NCBI GenBank assembly: GCA_964403465.1
Contig: CAYOFY010000001.1
Coordinates: 1-58,592, forward strand
Direction of reading: 5' to 3'
DNA: 58,592 nucleotides
Source: an uncultured bacterium
Lineage (GTDB): Bacteria > Ratteibacteria > UBA8468 > B48-G9 > JAFGKM01
In this document: in pieces, positions 5,725 through 55,942 of the stretch
Layout of the letters: each line of letters begins with the position of its first letter
Position numbering within the stretch: position 1 is the first letter of the stretch
The notes under the pieces: model-generated
Database searches by the model: none
Seen by the model: the letters and a program-made list of their open reading frames with translations, nothing else
What the model was told of the DNA's origin: nothing
Position numbers and translations under genes: made by a program

Positions 5725-5742
5725 CGCTTTTTAATATATAAT
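5714..5742 (+). promoter_or_regulatory. candidate promoter of aroB-pheA-DAHPS operon (TTGTGA-17 nt-TATAAT)
   Basis: TTGTGA at 5714-5719, a 17-nt spacer, TATAAT at 5737-5742. The -10 ends only 8 nt before the aroB ATG (5751) and there is no Shine-Dalgarno sequence in between. Confidence 0.35.
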
Positions 5743-5750
5743 CTTTAGAT

Positions 5751-6836
5751 ATGAAAAAGATCAGGATGAATCTTGGTGAAGACAGCTATTTTATTTATGC
5801 AGGATATCCCATAGAGAAACTCGGCAGCAGGATGGATAAAAGGAATTACGGCAAAAAGGTGATGCTTCTGACTGATAGTAATGTATTTCCCCGTTATGGC
5901 CGTGCCATTGAGAAAGCTGTCACAGGAACAGGCAGGGAGGTCATTGACTTTCTGGTAAAGCCCGGCGAAGAAGTAAAAAGCCTCAGGAAGATTTACGAAA
6001 TAATGGAGGCATGCGCAAAAAACCGGATGGGCAGGGACGATACGCTTCTGACGCTTGGAGGAGGAGTAGCGAGCGACCTGGGAGGTTTTGCAGCATCCAT
6101 CTACATGAGAGGAATCAATTTCATCGCCGTTCCGACCACTTTGCTGGCTCAGGTTGATGCCTCAATAGGTGGTAAGACCGGCGTTAACCTGCCTTTCGGG
6201 AAGAATCTTGTCGGAAGTTTCTATCAGCCATCCTTCGTATATATGGATTTCAAAACACTGCAGACATTGCCGGAAATAGAGTTGAAACAGGGCCTGGCCG
6301 AAATAATAAAATACGGGGTAATAAAGAGCAGAAAGATATTTGGCATACTGGACAGCGTTTCTTTCACCGGCATAAGGAAATATCTTCCCCGGCTTATTGA
6401 GGAAAGTATCCTGATTAAAAGAGATGTCGTGGAGAAAGACGAGAAAGAGAAAAAAGGATTGAGGGAGATACTGAATTTCGGACATACGCTCGGACATGCA
6501 ATTGAAATTGCGCATTTCCCGAAACTGAGTCACGGCGAATCCGTTGCTCTGGGAATGGTCGGGGAAGGTTATTTTTCGTGGCGGCTCGGCATATGCAGGA
6601 GAGAGGTTTACTCCGACATAAGAGAGATTGTAAAAAAATGCAGGCTGCCGTTTTCATTCCAGACCGTGAAAACAGAAAGGTTGCCTGATTTCCTTCAATA
6701 TGACAAGAAAGCAAGGCGGGGCAATATAAGGTTTGTCATGGTCAGGGACATCGGAACAGTGAAAACAGGAGTGGTGATAAAGCCAGAAGAAGTGACAAGA
6801 CTGTTAAAGGAGATGGGACAGAATGAAAAACCTTAA
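5751..6836 (+). CDS. aroB: 3-dehydroquinate synthase
   Basis: 361 aa with 'LGGGVASDLGGFAA', 'DASIGGKTGVN' and 'LNFGHTLGHAIE'. Confidence 0.94.
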   Translation: MKKIRMNLGEDSYFIYAGYPIEKLGSRMDKRNYGKKVMLLTDSNVFPRYGRAIEKAVTGTGREVIDFLVKPGEEVKSLRKIYEIMEACAKNRMGRDDTLLTLGGGVASDLGGFAASIYMRGINFIAVPTTLLAQVDASIGGKTGVNLPFGKNLVGSFYQPSFVYMDFKTLQTLPEIELKQGLAEIIKYGVIKSRKIFGILDSVSFTGIRKYLPRLIEESILIKRDVVEKDEKEKKGLREILNFGHTLGHAIEIAHFPKLSHGESVALGMVGEGYFSWRLGICRREVYSDIREIVKKCRLPFSFQTVKTERLPDFLQYDKKARRGNIRFVMVRDIGTVKTGVVIKPEEVTRLLKEMGQNEKP

Positions 6837-17978: not shown

Positions 17979-18009
17979 TGAAGTTATGAACTTATGGAGT
18001 TAAGCCATC

Positions 18010-21544: not shown

Positions 21545-22070
21545 GTCTTCTGCACATATAGAAATTAATCAATTATCAAAAAAATGCACGTCCTTGAATA
21601 TTATCTAAGATTTTATTTATCAGACGATAAGACATATAACGTCGGATAAGAAATATTATGTTAACTTAACTGTCCCACAAACTCGTCCGAAGGAACCCCG
21701 AATACAGATTAAAGTGTTGAAAGGCTTCTCTTAAGAAAAACTTTGATATAATGCGCTCTAAGTCATTCATGTAGAATAACTTATCATTCAAAAGTTATAA
21801 GAGCTTTTTTTGGGTATTTTTTATGAAATCCCCTGCATATTCAGCCTCAAAATAGTAGACGGAGCGCGCGGACAGATATTATTACACCTAAATCAGACAA
21901 TTATTATGCATCATCTGACCAGAACATAGAATTTCTGGTGGTGAACACACATACCGTCTGTCCTGATACCGATGATCAAAACCGCCCAGAAATACGGCCT
22001 TATGGTCTGCAATCAAAGACGGAGAAAGGCTACAACTTAGCGTCCGCAAACTATATTTTTTTGTGAATTT

Positions 22071-22578
22071 TCACGCTTTCAGCTTCTTCTTTCCTGTTTC
22101 CTGGACTGAATTATATAAGTGTATATCTATCAGGTAGTTATAAGTCCTTGCTTCATGTAATATGTAAATTAAAATCCCGCCCTGCAGCTCCACTCCATGC
22201 CGAAAAATTTTCAAAGCGACCCCCGTATGTGAAATTTCCATAAAATTCTGCCACCGGAATTCTCTTAGTACATCCAACCGGAAAATTGCCTTTTCCTGTT
22301 TTATGCGCCCAGCATCCGCATGAAAATCAAAAATTAGGCTTTCTTTCTCCGTTTAAGAACGTTTTATACGCCTTTATATCATTTGAGGGCCCTATTACCC
22401 CTGATTCTGGGCCGTTAATTACCCGCAAGTCATATTTAAGCATCCCAATCCGCCTGGCACGGCTTCTCATATCCCCTGTCCACCCTCCCCTGAAAATCCT
22501 TCCATGAGGGTAAAAATAAACTTTTCTTCCACATTCATATGACAAACCTGGAACTTTGCTCTTCACCCCAATGTCCAA
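22071..22578 (-). pseudogene. decayed REP-associated tyrosine transposase (RAYT / IS200-like Y1 transposase) remnant
   Basis: Two minus-strand reading frames are needed. 'HGRIFRGGWTGDM' resembles the RAYT N-terminus 'Y.KGGTWFFT'. 'FMEISHTGVAL' sits where the HUH motif should be, and the His pair is lost. 'ARTYNYLIDIHLYNSVQETG' aligns with the C-terminal 'DY...VDYIYINPVKHG', and the catalytic Tyr position is changed. A frameshift lies between 22277 and 22327. Confidence 0.45.
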
Positions 22579-22617
22579 AAAGAAAGTGCACGGACTCCTT
22601 TTCCTCGGAGTCCGTGC
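22572..22617 (-). terminator. rho-independent terminator of ppdK
   Basis: An 11-bp perfect stem pairs gcacggactcc (22588-22598) with ggagtccgtgc (22607-22617) across an 8-nt loop. On the minus strand it is followed by CTTTCTTTTT. Confidence 0.8.
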
Positions 22618-22633: not shown

Positions 22634-22705
22634 TACAACTTAGTAACTTTAAAAGTTTGGGAGTTATATAGTTAAGAAGTTAAGTACTTCGTAAGTTCCA
22701 AACTT
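22634..22705. repeat. nine tandem 8-bp units, each ending in an A[C/G]TT box
   Basis: Boxes start at 22638, 22646, 22654, 22662, 22670, 22678, 22686, 22694 and 22702. In order they read ACTT ACTT AGTT AGTT AGTT AGTT ACTT AGTT ACTT. The register is lost on both flanks. Confidence 0.9.
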
Positions 22706-22710
22706 CAGTA

Positions 22711-25431
22711 TTACCTTTGCTCCTCTATCGCTGCCTGTGCTGCGGCGAGGACGGCAATTGGAATTCTATACGGAGAACAACTGACATAGTTCATTCTTAC
22801 CCGGTGGCAGAACTTGACTGATTCTGCTTCGCCACCATGCTCTCCACATATACCGACCTTCAGTCCAGGTCGTGTGCTTCTGCCGCGTCTGATCCCTATG
22901 TCAACCAGTTCGCCTATACCCTCCTGGTCAAGAACCTGAAAGGGATCTTCGGGAAGAATTTTTTTCTCGATGTAGTCCGGTGCGAAAGCCCCGATATCGT
23001 CTCTTGAAAATCCGAAACCCATCTGTGTCAGGTCATTCGTACCGAACGAAAAAAATTCGGCCTCGGACGCGATTTTCCCGGCAGTCAGTGCCGCCCTTGG
23101 GATTTCAATCATCGTTCCGTAGAGGTATTCTATCTTTTTAACCCCATACTTACCGCACACTTCCTCGTGAATTTTATCCACTATTTTTTTCTGGTCCTGC
23201 AATTCTTCGACGGTGCTTACAACCGGCACCATAATCTCCGGCAATGCCTCCTTGCCCTCCTTTATCAATTCTACTGCGGATTCAAAGATTGCCCTGACCT
23301 GCATCTCGGTAACTTCGGGATAGGTAACTCCTAAACGTACACCGCGATGTCCCATCATGGGATTTGTTTCATGCAGATTCTCTCCCCTCTTTTTAAATTC
23401 TTCCAGTGATATTCCAAGACTCTTTGCAAGCTTGGATTGTTCACTCTCGCGCTTCGGCACAAATTCATGCAACGGAGGGTCAAGCAGCCTTATGGTAACA
23501 GGGAGCCCGTTCATAACCTCCATCGTAGCCTTAATATCCTTTTTTACGTACGGCAGCAATTCTTCCAAAGCCGCCCTCCTCTCTTCAGTCGTATTAGCCA
23601 CAATCATCTTTCTCAGGTGGAACAATGGCTCTTCCGAACCCTTTCCATAAAACATATGCTCCGTTCTGAAAAGCCCTATGCCTTCCGCACCGAAAGCAAT
23701 CGCATTCCTTGCGTCGTCAGGTGTGTCGGCATTAGCCCTTACGCCCAGTCTGCGCAGAGAATTCGCAATTCTCATGAATTCGGCAAAACGCGGGTTTTCC
23801 GTTGCATCAATCATAGGCAGGCTTCCTTCATAGACATACCCTCTCGTTCCGTTAAGAGTAATAACGGCGCCTTCCTTGAAAGTTTTGCCGTCCACGATTA
23901 GAGTCTTCTTATGGACATCTATTTTTAGCGCGCTGCAACCGACAATACAACACTTGCCCCATCCACGGGCAACAAGGGCCGCGTGGCTTGTCATCCCTCC
24001 CCTCCCCGTAAGTATGCCCTGTGCCGCTCTCATCCCCTCAACATCTTCCGGATTGGTCTCCTCTCTCACCAGAATTGTCTTTTTGCCATGTTTTGTCCAT
24101 TTTACGGCATCGTCCGCAGTAAATACTATCAGACCTGTCGCTCCGCCGGGACCGGCTGGAAGACCCTTGGCAAGAGGCTTCGCATTTGCTTCTGATTTCG
24201 GGTCTATTAGAGGATGGAGAAGTTCATCAACCTGGCTGGCTGTCAGTCTCATAACAACCTCTTTTCTATCTATGAGCTTTTCGGAAAGCATATCCATCGC
24301 CATATTGAGGGCAGCCGTGCCCGTCCTCTTACCCACACGACACTGTAACATCCATAGACGGCCTTCCTGGATAGTAAATTCAATATCCTGCATATCCCGG
24401 AAATGATTTTCAAGATTTAACCTTATATCACATAATTCTCTGTAAACATCAGGCATCGCCTCCTGGAGAGAATGCAGATGTTGATTCTGTTCGTTTTTCG
24501 TCTCTTCATTCAGAGGGTTCGGCGTCCTTATTCCGGCCACGACATCTTCTCCCTGTGCGTTCACCAGCCACTCGCCGTAGAACTTGTTCTCGCCTGTCGC
24601 AGGGTTGCGGGAAAACGCAACGCCGGTGGCCGAAGTATTGCCCATGTTGCCGAAGACCATAGCCTGCACGTTTACCGCCGTGCCCCAATCATCTGGAATA
24701 CCTTCAATCCTGCGGTAGGAGACGGCCCTTTTCCCGTTCCAAGACTGGAAAACGGCCTTTATGCCACCCATCAATTGTTCCCATGCATTATCAGGAAATT
24801 CGGCTCCTATTACATCCTTTATTCTTTTTTTGAATGCCTCGCATAAATCCCTCAGGTCCTCTGCGGTAAGGTCGGTATCGGACTTATAACCTTTTTTGGT
24901 CTTTAATTCGCCCATCATCTTGTCCAGTTGAACCCTGATACCCCTGCCCTCCGACGGCTCCAGACCTGCGGCTTTTTCCATAACCACGTCAGAATACATC
25001 ATGATAAGACGTCTGTACGCATCATAGACGAAACGCGGGTTTTTTGTTTTCTTGATAAGACCTGGTATGGTCGCCGAACAGAGCCCCACATTGAGCACCG
25101 TCTCCATCATGCCAGGCATGGATTTGCGTGCGCCGGAACGAACAGAAACAAGCAGGGGATTCACTCCATCCCCGAACTTTCTGCCCATGATATCCTCAAC
25201 CTTTAAAAGGTGTTCCTTTATCTCCTCCTCCAGTCTATCAGGGAGATTCTTCCCTTTTTGATAGTAATAGGTGCATACTTCCGTCGTGATTGTAAACCCT
25301 GCAGGAACGGGGATGTCCAGCCTTACCATCTCCGCAAGTCCTGCTCCCTTCCCTCCGAGTAATTCTTTCATCTTCCCATCACCGTCCGCTTTACCTGCAC
25401 CAAAAAAATAAACGTACTTCTTGCCATCCAT
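22711..25431 (-). CDS. ppdK: pyruvate, phosphate dikinase
   Basis: The ATG at 25431 follows GGAGGGAGG ('MDGKKYVYFFG'). Motifs 'GGKGAGLAEM', 'GGMTSHAALVARGWGK' (phospho-His loop), 'FSFGTNDLTQ' and 'GICGEHGG'. Confidence 0.97.
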   Translation of the reverse strand: MDGKKYVYFFGAGKADGDGKMKELLGGKGAGLAEMVRLDIPVPAGFTITTEVCTYYYQKGKNLPDRLEEEIKEHLLKVEDIMGRKFGDGVNPLLVSVRSGARKSMPGMMETVLNVGLCSATIPGLIKKTKNPRFVYDAYRRLIMMYSDVVMEKAAGLEPSEGRGIRVQLDKMMGELKTKKGYKSDTDLTAEDLRDLCEAFKKRIKDVIGAEFPDNAWEQLMGGIKAVFQSWNGKRAVSYRRIEGIPDDWGTAVNVQAMVFGNMGNTSATGVAFSRNPATGENKFYGEWLVNAQGEDVVAGIRTPNPLNEETKNEQNQHLHSLQEAMPDVYRELCDIRLNLENHFRDMQDIEFTIQEGRLWMLQCRVGKRTGTAALNMAMDMLSEKLIDRKEVVMRLTASQVDELLHPLIDPKSEANAKPLAKGLPAGPGGATGLIVFTADDAVKWTKHGKKTILVREETNPEDVEGMRAAQGILTGRGGMTSHAALVARGWGKCCIVGCSALKIDVHKKTLIVDGKTFKEGAVITLNGTRGYVYEGSLPMIDATENPRFAEFMRIANSLRRLGVRANADTPDDARNAIAFGAEGIGLFRTEHMFYGKGSEEPLFHLRKMIVANTTEERRAALEELLPYVKKDIKATMEVMNGLPVTIRLLDPPLHEFVPKRESEQSKLAKSLGISLEEFKKRGENLHETNPMMGHRGVRLGVTYPEVTEMQVRAIFESAVELIKEGKEALPEIMVPVVSTVEELQDQKKIVDKIHEEVCGKYGVKKIEYLYGTMIEIPRAALTAGKIASEAEFFSFGTNDLTQMGFGFSRDDIGAFAPDYIEKKILPEDPFQVLDQEGIGELVDIGIRRGRSTRPGLKVGICGEHGGEAESVKFCHRVRMNYVSCSPYRIPIAVLAAAQAAIEEQR

Positions 25432-25592
25432 TATTTCCTCCCTCCGTACAAGATTTTTAAAGCTGGTAGTTTTAACGCCCACCAATTTTAATCTTTTTTC
25501 AATATACAGTCAAATTTCAATTTCATTTGTGTAATTGACGGTTATATATTATAGTAGTTTAGATTTGTTCCTTTAATAGGGAGGAGACTGGA

Positions 25593-43056: not shown

Positions 43057-44031
43057 ATGGAAAACATAAGAATAGCGGCGGCTCAGTTTGAAAACCGGAA
43101 TGCCGATAAGAGATACAACCTTTCTGTAATACATTCATTAACCGCCAGGGCAGTGTCACAGGGAGCTGAAGTGATAAGTTTTCATGAAGGCAGCATAACG
43201 GGTTACACCTTCATCAGACGGCTGAATAAGACAGAACTGCTTGACATCGCTGAACCCGTGCCGGGCGGAAATAGCATCCGGCAATTAATGGCTATCTCCA
43301 AAGAATTCAAAATTCATATTCTTGCCGGACTTATAGAAAAAGATTCCAAAGATAATATTTACAATACCTACATTTGTGTGAGTGGGACAAAATTGATTGC
43401 AAGATTCAGGAAGATGCATCCTTTCATAAACCCTTCTATTTCCCCGGGAAATGAGTATGTAACATTTGATATAAAAGGATGCAAATGCAGCATTCTGATA
43501 TGTTACGATAATAATCTGGTGGAGAACGTAAGAATCACAGCCCTCATGGGAGCAGAGATTGTTTTTATGCCGCATGTTACCTGCTGTCTGCCTTCACCCA
43601 TGCCTGGCAGAGGTTTTGTGGACAGGAAACTCTGGGAAAATCGGGAAAAAGATCCGGTTCCCCTCAAGATGGAGTTTATGGGGCCGAAAGGTCGAGGATG
43701 GCTGATGAAATGGCTGCCTGCAAGGGCCTATGAAAACGGTATCTATGCGGTATTTTCAAACCCCGTTGGAATTGATGACGACCAGGTCAGGAACGGCAAT
43801 GCCATGATTATAGACCCTTTCGGGGAAATCATTGCGGAATGCAACACGCTGGGCGATGATATGACTGTCGGACAATGTGTACCTGAAAAAATCGCCCTGT
43901 CTTCAGGAAGGCGCTATCTGAAAGCAAGAAGACCCGAACTCTACGGGAGACTTGTTGAGCCTCCGCCGGAAAAACCGGAAACAAAACCTGGATGGGATAT
44001 AAATATTAAAGATAAACGGAACGCTTCATGA
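43057..44031 (+). CDS. carbon-nitrogen hydrolase (nitrilase superfamily) protein
   Basis: 'IRIAAAQFE', 'FRKMHPF' and 'CSILICYD' give Glu, Lys and Cys in the expected order. The ATG at 43057 is preferred over the TTG at 43000. Confidence 0.85.
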   Translation: MENIRIAAAQFENRNADKRYNLSVIHSLTARAVSQGAEVISFHEGSITGYTFIRRLNKTELLDIAEPVPGGNSIRQLMAISKEFKIHILAGLIEKDSKDNIYNTYICVSGTKLIARFRKMHPFINPSISPGNEYVTFDIKGCKCSILICYDNNLVENVRITALMGAEIVFMPHVTCCLPSPMPGRGFVDRKLWENREKDPVPLKMEFMGPKGRGWLMKWLPARAYENGIYAVFSNPVGIDDDQVRNGNAMIIDPFGEIIAECNTLGDDMTVGQCVPEKIALSSGRRYLKARRPELYGRLVEPPPEKPETKPGWDINIKDKRNAS

Positions 44032-44851
44032 CTTCAACGGGGGCAGTTTTTCCCGTCCACAGTTCAAAAGAAATAGCCCCCTGGTATATCAGCATTGAAA
44101 GACCGTCAAGACAGCGTAATCCTTTTTTCTCAGCCGCCTTGAGCAATTCCGTTTTCCTGTTATAAACTATGTCATAAACAAACTTATCTCCGGCAAGATT
44201 TTCTGAATCTATAAGAAGAGGGTCGCCTTTTTTCATTCCGACCGAGGTAGTATTAATCAGGAGTTGTATATCCAGCCATATTTTCTTATCATTTCTTTCC
44301 CCAAACGGCACAACCTCAACGGATTTATATCCCAGATTTTTGAAGAGATGCCTCTTTAAAAGGATGGCCTTCTTTTCTGTTCTGTTGCATATGTAGATTC
44401 TGGATACTTTTCCCTTGGCCAGCGCCCCGCTTATGGCATAGGAAGAACCTCCTGAGCCAAGAATAAAAACTTTCTTGCCCCGTATGGTAAAGCCACAACT
44501 TTCTTTCAAAGAACGCGCGAATCCGCTTCCGTCAGTAGTATATCCCTTTAATTTGCCGTTTTTGTTTACAACGGTATTTACCGCTCCAAGAAGTTTAGCT
44601 TCTTCGTCTATCCCGTCAAGATATTTCAGAACCGCCCTCTTGTGAGGAATGGTGATATTCACCCCTGCAAAATTAAGAGCCCTTATACCTTCAATGGCTT
44701 TTCCTATCTCTTCAGGAGCAACCTCCATCGGGATATAAACACAATCCAGTTTCAAATATTCAAAAGCAGCATTTTGAAAGAGAGGTGATAGCGAATGGCC
44801 TACAGGATAGCCGAATACACCGGTAATTCTGGTTTTTCCCGTTATTTTCAT
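44006..44851 (-). CDS. aroE: shikimate dehydrogenase
   Basis: 'GVFGYPVGHSLSPLFQNAAF', 'GVNITIPHK', 'ILGSGGSSYA' and 'NTTSVGM'. The start is taken as the ATG at 44851; the TTG at 44887 would overlap the parA promoter. The 3' end overlaps the nitrilase gene by 26 nt. Confidence 0.9.
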   Translation of the reverse strand: MKITGKTRITGVFGYPVGHSLSPLFQNAAFEYLKLDCVYIPMEVAPEEIGKAIEGIRALNFAGVNITIPHKRAVLKYLDGIDEEAKLLGAVNTVVNKNGKLKGYTTDGSGFARSLKESCGFTIRGKKVFILGSGGSSYAISGALAKGKVSRIYICNRTEKKAILLKRHLFKNLGYKSVEVVPFGERNDKKIWLDIQLLINTTSVGMKKGDPLLIDSENLAGDKFVYDIVYNRKTELLKAAEKKGLRCLDGLSMLIYQGAISFELWTGKTAPVEVMKRSVYL

Positions 44852-44880
44852 ATTTAAAATATTACCATTTAAAATATCTC

Positions 44881-44929
44881 TTGACAAAAACAGGAGTTTA
44901 CTTTATATTATCAGGAAGTTCATAACTTC
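44881..44929 (+). promoter_or_regulatory. candidate parA promoter (TTGACA-17-TATATT) followed by palindrome GAAGTTcatAACTTC
   Basis: TTGACA at 44881-44886, TATATT at 44904-44909, and a perfect 6-3-6 palindrome at 44915-44929, roughly where a transcript from this promoter would start. Confidence 0.55.
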
Positions 44930-44950
44930 ATAAAAACAGTGGAGGAGTCG

Positions 44951-45718
44951 ATGAGAAAAATAGCAATCATAAATCAGAAGGGCGGTTCCGGCAAAACAAC
45001 CACGGTGGTGAATACGGGTGCATTCCTTGCACAGAGGGGGAAAAAGGTTCTTCTGATAGACCTTGACCCTCAGTCTCACACAACCATTCATCTTGGTTTC
45101 GAACCTCCAAGCATTAAAAACTCGGTTTATGACATTCTTATCAAGAAATTCCCTTTAAGGGAAGTGCTCCTGCCGACATACGAAAAAAACCTGTCCATAA
45201 TACCTGCCAGCATAGAACTTGCAAGCGCGGAAATAGAACTGGTAAATGAGATAGGCAGGGAGATAATCCTCAGGGATGCTCTGAAGAAAAGCAAAATGGA
45301 TTTTGATTACATACTCATAGATTGCCCGCCTTCCCTCGGTCTCCTGACTCTTAATGCACTGACAACCGCCGATGAGATATTCATTCCGATTCAGGCAGAA
45401 TTTTTTGCTCTTGAAGGGCTCACAAAATTAATGCAGACGATTGAAATAGTCAAAAAACGGTTGAATCCCCGTATTGAAATATCAGGCATAATAATAACAA
45501 TGTTTGATGCCAGAAAAAACATCTGCAGGGATGTCTCTGACAAAGTGGCCAGTTATTTCAAGAAGAAGATATTTAAGACAAAGATACGCGAAAATGTACG
45601 GCTTGCCGAAGCACCAAGTTTCGGAAAAACAATAAAGGATTTTGCACCCTGCAGCCATGGCTGGGAAGATTACAGGAAACTTGCTTCAGAGATAATAAAG
45701 CAGGAGAAGAAAAAATGA
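44951..45718 (+). CDS. parA: ParA/Soj-family partition ATPase
   Basis: Deviant Walker A 'KIAIINQKGGSGKTTT', then 'LLIDLDPQ' and 'DYILIDCPPSLG'. The ATG at 44951 follows GGAGGAG. Confidence 0.92.
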   Translation: MRKIAIINQKGGSGKTTTVVNTGAFLAQRGKKVLLIDLDPQSHTTIHLGFEPPSIKNSVYDILIKKFPLREVLLPTYEKNLSIIPASIELASAEIELVNEIGREIILRDALKKSKMDFDYILIDCPPSLGLLTLNALTTADEIFIPIQAEFFALEGLTKLMQTIEIVKKRLNPRIEISGIIITMFDARKNICRDVSDKVASYFKKKIFKTKIRENVRLAEAPSFGKTIKDFAPCSHGWEDYRKLASEIIKQEKKK

Positions 45719-46092
45719 AAAAAACAGGTCTGGGAAGGGACCCTTTGAGCTGGATAAATTCTACATCTGATGGAAAGAAATCAGTGGAGAAGGAGGTTGA
45801 ACTGCAAATTTCAACAGGGGAAAAAAAGGAAAAGGCGGGTATTCCAAAGTTCAAGACCTTTGATGTCCGCCTGACTTCTCTACTGAGGGAAGACCAGCTT
45901 GATTTTCTTGATAAATTGATACGGGAGATACAGAAAAACAGGGAGCCCCAATACAGGAAAGAAAGGATAACCAAAAATACCCTGATGCGGGTCTTCATAG
46001 ATGCTTTCATGAATATAAAGATAGACACGTCAAATATTCCGGACGAAGAAACTCTCCTTGAAAAGGTCCTGCGGACCATAAAACAGAAATAA
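45715..46092 (+). CDS. small ParA-coupled protein with ParB-like N-terminal peptide and putative ribbon-helix-helix C-terminal half
   Basis: ATGA overlap with parA. The N-terminus 'KKTGLGRDPLSWI' resembles the ParB 'GLGRGL' peptide. 'KTFDVRLTSLLREDQLDFLDKLIREI...ITKNTLMRVFIDAF' fits a strand-helix-helix pattern. 125 aa. The RHH call is pattern-based. Confidence 0.5.
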   Translation: MKKTGLGRDPLSWINSTSDGKKSVEKEVELQISTGEKKEKAGIPKFKTFDVRLTSLLREDQLDFLDKLIREIQKNREPQYRKERITKNTLMRVFIDAFMNIKIDTSNIPDEETLLEKVLRTIKQK

Positions 46093-46210
46093 AGCTTCCT
46101 TTGTTCCGGATCATCGCTTCACTGCAAGATTTTCATGCCTTCCAGAAAATGAAACCTGCGGTTCATCAGAAACATCTAAATCCCGGTAAATGAAAAAGGA
46201 GGTGTTTGGT

Positions 46211-46654
46211 ATGGACAAGATTGCAGGTTGGAATCCTCTCAGGGAGTTGCTGGATGTCAGGAATAATTTCGACCGGATAGTGGAGAGCATCTTCAAACCC
46301 GGAGTCGCTTTTGGGGAAGCATATGCGAATGTGCCGGCCGTTGATGTCTATGAGGATAAGAACAACGTGTTCGTGAAAGCTGAGATTCCGGGATTGAAGA
46401 AGGAAGATATGGATGTTTCACTGACAGATGATATTCTCACGTTATCCTCGACGAAATCAGAAACAAGAGAGGAGAAGAAGGAGAATTTCTACAGAAAGGA
46501 GATCAGGGAAGGGTCTTTTTCAAGAAGCTTGGAAATCCCCTGTGAAATTGACAGGGACAGGATAACTGCTTCTTACAGCAACGGTGTTCTTGAAGTCATC
46601 CTTCCAAAGACCCCCGAAGCAAAGAAGAAAACGCTTAAGGTCAACATCAAGTAA
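46211..46654 (+). CDS. Hsp20/alpha-crystallin small heat-shock protein
   Basis: 'PAVDVYEDKNNVFVKAEIPGLKKEDMDVSL' and 'ASYSNGVLEVILPK'. The ATG lies 7 nt after AAGGAGG. Confidence 0.92.
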   Translation: MDKIAGWNPLRELLDVRNNFDRIVESIFKPGVAFGEAYANVPAVDVYEDKNNVFVKAEIPGLKKEDMDVSLTDDILTLSSTKSETREEKKENFYRKEIREGSFSRSLEIPCEIDRDRITASYSNGVLEVILPKTPEAKKKTLKVNIK

Positions 46655-46666
46655 CACAGGTACAAA

Positions 46667-46700
46667 GGGGAGGGATAATAGCTTGCCCTCCCCCTTTTTC
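46667..46700 (+). terminator. rho-independent terminator of the hsp20 gene
   Basis: ggggaggg (46667-46674) pairs with ccctcccc (46686-46693), followed by CTTTTT. Confidence 0.8.
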
Positions 46701-46756
46701 CTCCTGCTTGGTTGATATCTGTGCTATAATACCTTCCTGCATAAGGGTGCATAACC

Positions 46757-47737
46757 ATGAGAAGAACTGCGATATTATGTGGTTTGCTTTTACTTGCGGC
46801 AAGTCTGTTTTTTGTGATCTCGAAGCGTTCCGCCTGTAATTACGTCGCAAGAGAAGAACTCGCAATGGATACATTTGTGAAGATAACCATGGAGAAATCC
46901 TCTGATGATGAAGCAATACTCAATGAAGCTTTCAGCAGAATAAGCGAACTTGAAAAGGTATTCAACGTTCATGATCCCGACAGCGAAATCAGCCGGCTGA
47001 ACAGGTTGAAGAAAAGCGAGGTTTCCGAAGAACTTCTTCACCTTATCAAGAAGAGCATCACTGTGAGCAAAGTGACCGGCGGTGCATTCGACATAACCGT
47101 GCTGCCGCTTATGAATCTATACAGGAACGCGGAGAAAAGAGGCACCCCTCCTTCAGAACAAGAGATAAGGAAAACTCTGGAACATGTGGGATGGGAGAGG
47201 ATAGGAATTCGGGGAAATACTGTAATCATCCCGGAAAGCATTGATATGGGGGGTATAGCAAAAGGATACATAGTTGACAGGACTGCTGAATTTCTGAAGG
47301 AGAAAGGTGTACGGAGCGCCCTTATAAACGCAGGAGGCGATATATACTGTTTCGGCAAAAACCCCGACGGAAGGAAATGGAAGGTAGGAGTACAGGATCC
47401 ATTCAGGAAAGACGGTATCAGGCAGATTGTCCGCTTGACCGATTATGGAATAGCTACATCGGGCGATTATGAAAGATACCTTAAAATAAAGGGGAAGAAA
47501 TACGGACATATAGTAAATCCGAGGACAGGTGAGAGTGTTCAGAATTATCCAGCAGGTGTAACGGTAATTGCAGATAATGCCGCAACTGCCGATGGATTCG
47601 CTACTGCGTTTTTCGTCCTGGGGATTGAGAAAAGCATTGAGCTTGCAAACATGGAAAAAAACCTGGAAGTTCTTTTGATAGATGACAAAGGCAAGATACA
47701 CGAAAGCAGAAATTTTTCAAAGTTCACCGCGCCATAG
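46757..47737 (+). CDS. apbE: FAD:protein FMN transferase (ApbE family)
   Basis: Lipoprotein-like N-terminus. Motifs 'AMDTFVKIT', 'MGGIAKGY' and 'ATSGDYERY'. Confidence 0.9.
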   Translation: MRRTAILCGLLLLAASLFFVISKRSACNYVAREELAMDTFVKITMEKSSDDEAILNEAFSRISELEKVFNVHDPDSEISRLNRLKKSEVSEELLHLIKKSITVSKVTGGAFDITVLPLMNLYRNAEKRGTPPSEQEIRKTLEHVGWERIGIRGNTVIIPESIDMGGIAKGYIVDRTAEFLKEKGVRSALINAGGDIYCFGKNPDGRKWKVGVQDPFRKDGIRQIVRLTDYGIATSGDYERYLKIKGKKYGHIVNPRTGESVQNYPAGVTVIADNAATADGFATAFFVLGIEKSIELANMEKNLEVLLIDDKGKIHESRNFSKFTAP

Positions 47738-50441: not shown

Positions 50442-51176
50442 ATGCAACAGAATATTGACCGGGAAAGGTTTTACAGGGACATACTGAACCACTCAGGATT
50501 TGAGAGATTTCAGGTGAGGGTTGAAGAGACCGACCTTCTCGTTATTGCTGAGAAAAATCTGAAAAATGAAGTTGAAACACAGGCAATAAAACAGCGGGAT
50601 ATCATAAAAAAATATATCAAGGGCCATCCGGAATTTTACACCTCCTTTTCACCCGTGCATTGCGAAAGCGATGAGGAAATCATACGGCTCATGTGTGATT
50701 CTTCCAGGATGACGTCTACCGGCCCGATGGCTTCGGTTGCAGGAGCAATTGCTGAACTGATTGGACGCAGCATCTTACCGTTAACAAGTCAGGTATTCAT
50801 TGAAAACGGCGGGGACATCTTTGCACTGATGCACAGGGATTTCACCGTCGGTATTTATGCCGGCAACTCCCCGCTATCTCTGAAGGTGGGGATAAGGGTA
50901 TCCGGCGGAAATTTTCCTGTTGGCATCGCCACTTCAAGCGGCACGGTTGGACATTCTTTCAGTTACGGTAAAGCGGACGCGGCAACGGTGCTTTCCGGTT
51001 CCGCCGCCTTTTCTGACGGAGCAGCAACTTATTTTGGGAACCTTGTAAACGCAAATACTATTGAAAAAGACCTGTTGGAACGCGAACTTGAGAAGTTCCC
51101 GTTCATAAATGGGTTACTGGTCATTAAGGGAAAAGAGATATTCGCATGGGGGCAGATAGAACTTGTTTCATTTTGA
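50442..51176 (+). CDS. UPF0280 / ApbE-superfamily-like protein
   Basis: 244 aa. 'TGPMASVAGAIAE' and 'ENGGDIF' resemble the UPF0280 family. Assignment by recollection only. Confidence 0.55.
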   Translation: MQQNIDRERFYRDILNHSGFERFQVRVEETDLLVIAEKNLKNEVETQAIKQRDIIKKYIKGHPEFYTSFSPVHCESDEEIIRLMCDSSRMTSTGPMASVAGAIAELIGRSILPLTSQVFIENGGDIFALMHRDFTVGIYAGNSPLSLKVGIRVSGGNFPVGIATSSGTVGHSFSYGKADAATVLSGSAAFSDGAATYFGNLVNANTIEKDLLERELEKFPFINGLLVIKGKEIFAWGQIELVSF

Positions 51177-55654: not shown

Positions 55655-55942
55655 CTAAAAAAGCTCATCTTTCCCCGCATGGGTTTTATATAATCTTGTA
55701 ACTTTGAAAACAACTTTGTTTCTCTCCGGAATAAGAACCTCTGTTCCTGTCTTGGGATTTCTGCCCTTTTTCCTTTTCACTTTTTTAACTGAGAAAACCC
55801 CGAATCCTCGTAACTCAACTCTTTTACCTTCAGCCAGGGCATGTGACAGAACCATCAGAAATTTATCAGTGATCTCTTTCACTATAATTTTATTCAATCC
55901 GGTCTTCTCCGCAACCGCTTCAACTATGTCTTTTTTGATCAT
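55655..55942 (-). CDS. HU/IHF-family nucleoid-associated DNA-binding protein
   Basis: The ATG at 55942 gives 'MIKKDIVEAVAEKTGL'. 'LRGFGVFSVKKVKRKKGRNPKTGTEVLIPERNKVVFK' is the beta-arm signature. Confidence 0.9.
   Translation of the reverse strand: MIKKDIVEAVAEKTGLNKIIVKEITDKFLMVLSHALAEGKRVELRGFGVFSVKKVKRKKGRNPKTGTEVLIPERNKVVFKVTRLYKTHAGKDELF

Follow-up and report, generated by a model that had tools for sequence, protein, structure and literature searches.

The window analysed here, a 58,592-nt stretch of DNA from an uncultured Ratteibacteria bacterium (assembly GCA_964403465.1, contig CAYOFY010000001.1, positions 1 to 58,592), carries nine short boxes in exact 8-bp register between the stop codon of ppdK, the gene for pyruvate, phosphate dikinase (PPDK), and the terminator of that gene. 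On the same contig a parA gene is followed by a gene for a 125-aa protein, and the promoter of this pair bears two boxes of the same kind. We propose, with a probability of about 0.7 for the combined statement read loosely, that the array is the loading site of the 125-aa ParA partner in a type-Ib-like chromosomal partition system. Taken separately, the array is very likely a binding site of the 125-aa protein, while for its acting as a centromere the balance tips only slightly towards yes. The proposal is built on four observations: the array is conserved, its boxes are symmetric, it occurs together with the operator and the protein family, and plasmid homologues are accompanied by arrays of their own. 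The window is chromosomal, carrying ligA, aroA, aroC, leuS, rpsB, argH, lysA, HU and a tRNA.

A phased array at the 3' end of ppdK

In 8-nt units, positions 22634-22705 read TACAACTT AGTAACTT TAAAAGTT TGGGAGTT ATATAGTT AAGAAGTT AAGTACTT CGTAAGTT CCAAACTT. The A[CG]TT boxes start at 22638, 22646 and so on up to 22702, with nine of nine steps at the exact 8-bp period, and the register is lost on either flank. This agrees with an earlier annotation made by a model from the letters alone (the sequence-only reading), which had described nine such boxes in a register broken on both sides. The longest other 8-bp run in the 58.6-kb window comprises three boxes, and a scan of the window at the other periods from 5 to 13 gave at most two boxes per run. 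In the sense of ppdK, the stop codon is followed by 5 nt, nine AAST[T]nnn units, 16 nt and the terminator. The earlier placement of the array between the stop codon and the terminator is borne out by the Pfam-based assignment of ppdK (mechanical open reading frame (ORF) 22711-25485, minus strand, of which the 906-aa form is probably the true product) and by the hairpin at 22617-22588. Since it lies upstream of the ppdK terminator, the array is transcribed. Rfam gave no match at the array at gathering or permissive thresholds, and the pattern scans of the window found no box pair at the ppdK promoter.

We assign the window to Candidatus Omnitrophota; its closest PPDK matches come from Omnitrophota metagenome-assembled genomes (MAGs), at 84-86% identity. 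Among close-relative ppdK loci collected by protein similarity, an in-register AAST[T] array of 5-11 boxes abuts or overlaps the ppdK stop codon in all 11 species-level relatives whose PPDK is at least 81% identical. Arrays at the ppdK 3' end were recorded in loci L001, L002, L284, L285, L287, L289, L290, L292, L293 and L295 (PPDK 81-90% identical). More distant Omnitrophota with ppdK-linked arrays (L371, L393, L384 and L412; PPDK 56-69% identical) came from a GTDB-wide DNA pattern scan, with at least six ppdK-linked arrays among the matches listed; the two scans of this type were dominated by ordinary 8-nt and 16-nt microsatellites and provide no census. Each of the 14 non-redundant array-bearing Omnitrophota relatives examined has 5-11 boxes. 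In 13 the array abuts or overlaps the ppdK stop codon, its start lying -15 to +5 nt from the stop-codon end, and in L384 it is found 65 nt past the stop. The TGA stop lies inside a unit ('tgAACT') in five relatives. In L285 two slots are box-less and the register is nevertheless maintained. Terminators follow the array in relatives as well, with a homologous hairpin in L285 and other terminator-like hairpins in L293 and L295.

The gene downstream of ppdK varies by genome and may be a convergent DUF4013-pdxJ pair, DUF362, an MFS transporter or an ADP-ribosylglycohydrolase. The array is kept despite these different neighbours and therefore stays with ppdK, because it abuts or overlaps the stop codon and a rearrangement separating the two would damage one of them. 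This physical inseparability is a sufficient reason for their staying together. A survey of 160 ppdK loci (1.18 Mb) gave runs of at least four boxes only in the two closest relatives, both at the same place. A metagenome scan with PPDK, in which the best identity was 76%, returned no arrays, and no such array was present at Omnitrophota ppdK loci of at most 78% identity without the 125-aa protein. As a separate observation, a different repeat lies past the ppdK stop codon of Omnitrophota MAG161 (L027, ~5730-5830; PPDK 71% identical), with about nine GCGTAAA-like units at a 7-nt period and then a copy in inverted orientation. MAG161 does not figure among the assemblies in which the 125-aa protein was found, and its repeat may belong to a different system or act as a long hairpin terminator.

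Box composition and symmetry

The composition of the unit was determined from the 14 non-redundant arrays with 106 slots. Position 1 is A in 90% of the slots, position 2 is A in 96%, position 3 is C in 39% or G in 59% (S, 98%), position 4 is T in 99% and position 5 is T in 81%. Position 6 prefers A over C and T, position 7 is A or T, and position 8 prefers T over G. The unit is hence the palindrome K-AASTT-M plus W, i.e. (T/G)AASTT(A/C), and is symmetric beyond its core. In line with this, position 8 has a composition close to the complement of position 6 (chi-square p = 0.05), whereas a direct comparison of the two gives a strong difference (p = 6e-14). The order of C and G centres is random, as 47 of 88 neighbouring pairs differ, with 48% expected.

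The boxes are constrained, while the spacers are unrelated and not alignable between species. Three contigs of the same species show only five differences from the window in ~18.7 kb, and three of these five fall into one array spacer, at 22650 and 22652. A palindrome that is centred on S and indifferent to orientation is the mark of duplex DNA being recognised by a protein with two-fold symmetry, not of a reader of single-stranded RNA. The features of the boxes speak for a site that is read as a duplex.

The same boxes at the parA promoter

The 255-aa ParA matches the AAA_31, CbiA and ParA models, has no N-terminal helix-turn-helix (HTH) extension and shares ~50% identity with Soj-type ATPases; the parA stop codon and the start of the gene for the 125-aa protein overlap. 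The two boxes at 44916-44928 have a type and an 8-bp spacing identical to those of the ppdK-side array. With an alignment of the 125-aa protein family, 42 loci were retrieved from GTDB, and the 5' end of parA is present in 39 of them. The order parA, then small partner is found in 39 of the 42 loci, namely those with a locatable ParA, and on three plasmids. A strict AASTT-N3-AASTT pair lies at most 75 nt upstream of the parA ATG, right after a TTGACA/-10 promoter, in 35 of 39 loci. Two further loci have the pair 83-115 nt upstream, giving 37 of 39, down to 66% ParA identity. Altogether 194.5 kb of par loci contain 42 strict pairs, 37 of them at the parA promoter, where all four C/G combinations occur, direct pairs included. 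By position, the box pair at the promoter qualifies as an operator. L457, the contig of a distant homologue, ends before the promoter. The order aroE (divergent), parA, small partner, hsp20 and apbE is common to the window (44006-47737) and L462 / JAOAIL010000003.

Twelve par-locus assemblies also carry an in-phase array, 11 of them at ppdK and one (QNCF/L325) at a Macro-NUDIX/trpS junction. The array is present in all seven protein-carrying assemblies whose ppdK locus was fetched by protein similarity, and in none of eight ppdK loci of Omnitrophota or Ratteibacteria whose assemblies did not yield the 125-aa protein, counts that are phylogenetically non-independent and come from incomplete MAGs. 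The distance between array and par operon is ~22 kb in the window and ~18 and ~16 kb on two other contigs. No array of at least four boxes was found in the GTDB par-operon loci. Together with the three-box maximum elsewhere in the window and the survey of 160 ppdK loci, this shows that phased arrays are not a common background. In relatives that keep the parA pair the array is conserved, and it is absent at the Omnitrophota ppdK loci of assemblies in which that protein was not found.

The 125-aa ParA partner and its plasmid homologues

The 125-aa protein has 94 close homologues, most of them unlabelled; all taxon-labelled ones are from Omnitrophica or Ratteibacteria except one 'Firmicutes' record. 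When aligned, they all begin with M-K-K-x-G-L-G-(R/K)-D-P-L-x-W-I; then comes a variable linker rich in K and E, and at the C-terminus the conserved domain PKFKTFEVRLT...ERITKNTLIRVFIDAF. In an exhaustive profile search the wider family comprised ~310 clusters at 50% identity, with proteins of 100-200 aa. The N-terminal GLG(R/K)DPL, with its central Arg or Lys, appears to be a ParB-like ParA-contact motif, of the class of N-terminal ParA-binding motifs described for ParB. Pfam and other profile searches found no ParB, HTH or CTPase domain in the protein. Its AlphaFold2 (AF2) monomer model has helices at 59-75, 87-99 and 111-124, and low pLDDT for residues 1-50. A strand-like KTFDVRL followed by two helices with ERITKNTxIR is a pattern that, by sequence only, is compatible with a ribbon-helix-helix (RHH) fold. 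In the AF2 monomer the two expected helices come after a disordered strand region, and one distant relative gave a faint RHH_1 match (E = 0.065).

A tblastn search of PLSDB found distant relatives of the 125-aa protein on plasmids of Thermus thermophilus, Prosthecochloris aestuarii and Geminocystis. With hhalign the Thermus protein reached a probability of 97.9% (E = 4e-13) and the Prosthecochloris protein 99.1% (E = 8e-19); the Geminocystis match is based on tblastn alone. A ParA gene directly precedes the homologue on all three plasmids. Thermus thermophilus plasmid pAA1-1c carries two nine-unit (A/G)AGT arrays with an exact 8-bp period (L460 521-585 and 1413-1485), one just upstream of an HTH-parA-partner operon and the other beside a CopG/VapC toxin-antitoxin module. 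One of them terminates in an inverted AACT box, and the partner protein is annotated merely as 'ATPase'. On the Geminocystis plasmid, TAAC boxes with an 8-bp period are located upstream of parA. The 125-aa protein family thus occurs beside 8-bp-phased arrays of short boxes in the classical arrangement of plasmid partition. The sequence-only reading had favoured a centromere-like or iteron-like loading site linked to the palindrome at parA. This idea has survived all comparative tests that were run and draws its support from the conservation of the array, the 37 of 39 operators, the palindrome statistics and these plasmid homologues.

Proposed mechanism and alternative explanations

In the mechanism that we infer, which covers binding, cooperativity, protein fold and partition function, each dimer of the 125-aa protein would read one palindromic box (T/G)AASTT(A/C) on double-stranded DNA. 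Neighbouring dimers would join side by side every 8 bp and polymerise into a cooperative coat over the array, a geometry known from ParG on parH of TP228, from omega on its heptads and from MetJ on met-boxes. At the two boxes of its own promoter the protein would autoregulate its operon, while the nine-box array at ppdK and a three-box array at 17981 would give rise to a high-avidity partition complex. The N-terminal GLG(R/K)DPL peptide would then engage and stimulate the Soj-like ParA, and this region of the chromosome would be segregated.

Several observations weigh against this proposal. Lying between stop codon and terminator, the array is transcribed, which is an odd place for a centromere and would suit an element of the 3' untranslated region (UTR) equally well. 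Known type-Ib centromeres adjoin their operon, whereas the main array is 16-22 kb off. The GC skew of the window tracks gene orientation and is therefore uninformative on the replication origin, and the co-occurrence counts have the dependence given above. As to an RHH fold, searches of Pfam, NCBIfam and PHROGs with the 125-aa protein returned no family, and searches of PDB sequences with two profiles no match. A Foldseek search with the AF2 monomer model, also without a match, was uninformative. In hhalign comparisons with Arc, Mnt, CopG, omega and ParG (the ParG sequence being entered by hand) the probability was 0.5%. The fold behind the RHH-like label that the protein had been given from the sequence could therefore not be confirmed.

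A wider claim is tentative, and we consider it more doubtful than the proposal itself. It holds that the chromosome of this clade is segregated by a Soj-like ParA and a small non-HTH protein of an undescribed family, polymerising on AASTT pentamer arrays of 8-bp phase, and not by ParB/parS. The main centromere would be fused to the 3' end of ppdK and would be the first type-Ib-like centromere of a bacterial chromosome, and the same family would serve plasmids of Deinococcota, Chlorobiota and Cyanobacteria.

The same binder could instead be mainly a transcription factor, with the ppdK array acting in regulation as a roadblock or terminator enhancer, as a shield against convergent transcription or as a reservoir for repressor titration. 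An array that is transcribed as part of ppdK and placed right at the stop codon in 13 of the 14 non-redundant cases would fit such a role, as would the operator position of the two boxes upstream of parA. Moreover, omega and ParG double as repressors and centromere-binding proteins (PMC3130281, PMC3074150). We nevertheless regard a mainly regulatory role as unlikely, since the gene for the protein is always paired with one for a ParA ATPase, since the protein bears the ParB-like ParA-contact motif, and since its plasmid homologues reside in partition-type operons with adjoining arrays. The ppdK promoter, in addition, has no box pair, and the genes downstream vary between genomes, so that no common regulated target is apparent.

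Clearly less probable still is an RNA element of the ppdK 3' UTR, whose AAGUU/AACUU units would bind an oligomeric RNA-binding protein or form mini-hairpins for stability or termination. Wherever a terminator can be recognised, the array does lie in the interval from the ppdK stop codon to that terminator, its start keeps within the narrow range around the stop-codon end given above in 13 of 14 cases, and the arrays fold more stably than mononucleotide shuffles. Their natural unit order, however, gains no stability over random permutations of the same units (z = +1.7 for the window). The counts of G- and C-centred boxes are unbalanced, reaching 7:1 in L371, so the boxes cannot all pair and a fully paired RNA is excluded. 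A reader of single strands has no reason to impose the symmetry of a duplex palindrome that includes the flanks, and in RNA the two alternative centre bases, G and C, have no base edge in common. The boxes at the parA promoter occur in all four C/G combinations, including direct pairs that are unable to form a hairpin, and Rfam gave no match. A phased RNA array of the TRAP type does not fit either, as the motif is strand-symmetric including its flanks and the C/G order is random. The mini-hairpins that the sequence-only reading had offered as its alternative are thus disfavoured by the symmetry and the permutation test.

That the array is a functionless, decaying octanucleotide microsatellite is scarcely credible. 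Tandem octanucleotides with an ACTT or AGTT core are commonplace in many bacteria, but in these microsatellites the boxes are all of one type and the spacers nearly identical. In the arrays described here, four or five positions reach 81-99% conservation over the 106 slots from 14 species while the spacers are unrelated, empty slots keep the register (L285), and C- and G-centred boxes are mixed. Among the matches listed (L161-L414), octanucleotide or 16-nt repeats with ACTT/AGTT cores were frequent in Bacteroidota, Acidobacteriota, Cyanobacteria and other phyla, and Prevotella genomes have many variable AACTCAYM arrays.

Further sites and features of the window

The features are compiled in Table 1. 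The strict pair AASTT-N3-AASTT has six matches in the window, with 0.31 expected by chance: three in the main array, one at the operator, one at 17981-17993 and one at 51085. The earlier statement that the pair at the parA promoter was the only other one in register is therefore wrong. A five-box array is found at the same Macro-NUDIX/trpS junction in Omnitrophota B48_G9 (L325 5735-5775), whose TrpRS is 65% identical, and we take the mini-array at 17981-18001 for a probable second site, likewise conserved, that the 125-aa protein would bind. The pair at 51085-51097 may be a further site or a chance match. The canonical 16-bp parS has three matches in the window at 3 mismatches, with 1.3 expected, which is chance level. 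The HU/IHF protein (55655-55942, minus strand) had been named as another candidate binder; nothing ties HU to the array.

Table 1. Positions in the window of the array, the par operon and associated sites
Feature	Position	Strand	Details
Three-box in-phase mini-array AAGTTatgAACTTatgGAGTT	17981..18001	.	between Macro-NUDIX stop codon and trpS ATG
Intrinsic-terminator-like hairpin and T tract, end of ppdK transcript	22578..22617	-	hairpin 22617-22588
Main array, nine 8-bp units	22634..22705	.	ppdK-sense unit AAST[T]nnn
ppdK (pyruvate, phosphate dikinase) coding sequence	22711..25431	-	database product 906 aa
Sigma-70-type parA-operon promoter	44881..44909	+	TTGACA 44881-44886, 17-nt spacer, TATATT 44904-44909
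Two-box operator (by position) AAGTTcatAACTT	44916..44928	.	between -10 element and parA ribosome-binding site
ParA/Soj-type Walker ATPase, 255 aa	44951..45718	+	ATG start after GGAGG ribosome-binding site
125-aa ParA partner, candidate centromere-binding protein	45715..46092	+	N-terminal MKKTGLGRDPLSWI motif, K/E-rich linker, C-terminal PKFKTFDVRL...ERITKNTLMRVFIDAF
Strict box pair AACTTgagAAGTT	51085..51097	.	inside ORF 50442-51176 (no Pfam match), ~50 nt before PEMT-family gene

An apparent array in L331 (5624-5663) is part of a gene that codes for a small-protein homologue, where PKFKTFEV is encoded by AAGTTcaaAACTTttgAAGTc, and was not counted as a site. PKFKTF(E/D)V, the most conserved peptide of the family, is encodable by this sequence, as seen in L331 and also in L439 at 2639 and L442 at 1178; the phased motif within these genes probably arises by coincidence from the codons used. 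From DUF4013 to the ppdK terminator (21545-22587) the window has ~1.05 kb without an ORF of more than 83 aa, the small ORFs being without a Pfam match, and this non-coding stretch is unusually long for a gene-dense window. It includes a 30-nt block, AAGTTAACATAATATTTCTTATCCGACG (21638-21667, minus strand), that is 93-100% conserved in L292, L290, L285, L001 and L289 and ~80% in L003. The flanks of this block are not alignable. It is intergenic and downstream of ppdK, even with a different neighbour gene, and has no Rfam match.

Comparison with known systems

Tandem 8-bp palindromic units are also known from the met-boxes of MetJ, which are found in groups of 2-5 at promoters and bind one RHH dimer each, with contacts between neighbouring dimers. 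These units are what the two systems share, as MetJ is a metabolic repressor and has no ParA partner. Canonical ParA/ParB/parS systems resemble the one described here in the Soj-like ParA, in the N-terminal ParA-binding-type motif of the partner and in having several sites within tens of kb. They differ from it in the ParB, HTH and CTPase domains that the 125-aa partner lacks, and in a 16-bp parS palindrome in place of a phased array of pentamers. Archaeal SegA/SegB (PMC8682754) likewise combines a chromosomal ParA-type ATPase with a small site-specific DNA-binding partner; it is archaeal, and the likeness is one of description only.

The closest parallels are with plasmid partition systems of type Ib. 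In agreement with these, the ParA has no HTH extension and is encoded upstream of its partner, the partner has an N-terminal region of the contact type, the boxes are phased, and boxes are present at the operon's own promoter. Type Ib systems are plasmid-borne with a centromere adjoining the operon; since the present one is chromosomal and its main array is 22 kb away, we call it a variant of type Ib and not a member. The sequence-only reading had named ParG and parH of TP228 as an analogy, and accurately so: ParG binds ACTC boxes with 4-bp AT-rich spacers, 8 in the operator and 12 in the centromere, direct or inverted, cooperatively and with a dimer per box (PMC3130281). ParF/ParG/parH-OF of TP228 and the system described here have in common the exact 8-bp period, AT-rich spacers, boxes of mixed orientation, a small protein encoded right after a Walker ParA and the same boxes at its own promoter. 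Here, the box is a palindromic pentamer AASTT instead of ACTC, the operator consists of two boxes only, and the main array lies 16-22 kb from the operon, on the chromosome and in the 3' end of a housekeeping transcription unit. The 125-aa partner has a GLG(R/K) N-terminus and no detectable similarity to ParG, as judged with the hand-entered ParG sequence.

Omega of pSM19035 binds 7-10 contiguous heptads in either orientation with a dimer per repeat, forms a left-handed protein helix on straight DNA and contacts its ATPase through an unstructured N-terminus (PMC3074150). Delta/omega/parS thus shares arrays of contiguous short repeats, direct or inverse, with the system in the window; unlike it, it is plasmid-borne, has a 7-bp period without spacers, and its arrays overlap promoters. 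ParB of pCXC100, also of type Ib, had no sequence-detectable DNA-binding motif and turned out to be an RHH protein, binding nine contiguous 9-nt repeats successively and cooperatively (PMC3074162). It resembles the 125-aa protein in having no DNA-binding motif detectable by sequence, and its centromere resembles the array in the number of repeats, with the differences that its repeats are direct, 9 nt long and plasmid-borne; this likeness is one of description and not of homology.

According to reviews, every centromere-binding protein of a bacterial chromosome is an HTH ParB (PMC5002424). If true, our interpretation would contradict this rule for one clade (PMC5002424), and a plasmid-type solution would also have been adopted by chromosomes in a large uncultured phylum. 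In these genomes, 8-bp-phased AASTT arrays would then mark partition sites, a rule that could be used in annotation. A new protein family of ~310 clusters at 50% identity is defined here together with its DNA motif, and the protein, the operator and the proposed centromere are named at base resolution. A literature search found no paper describing this system. The combination of a ParA, a small array-coating protein and an iterated centromere is already known from plasmids; compared with these, the new features would be a chromosomal version in bacteria, a centromere detached from its operon and fused to the 3' end of a housekeeping gene, and a binding protein from a so far unannotated family.

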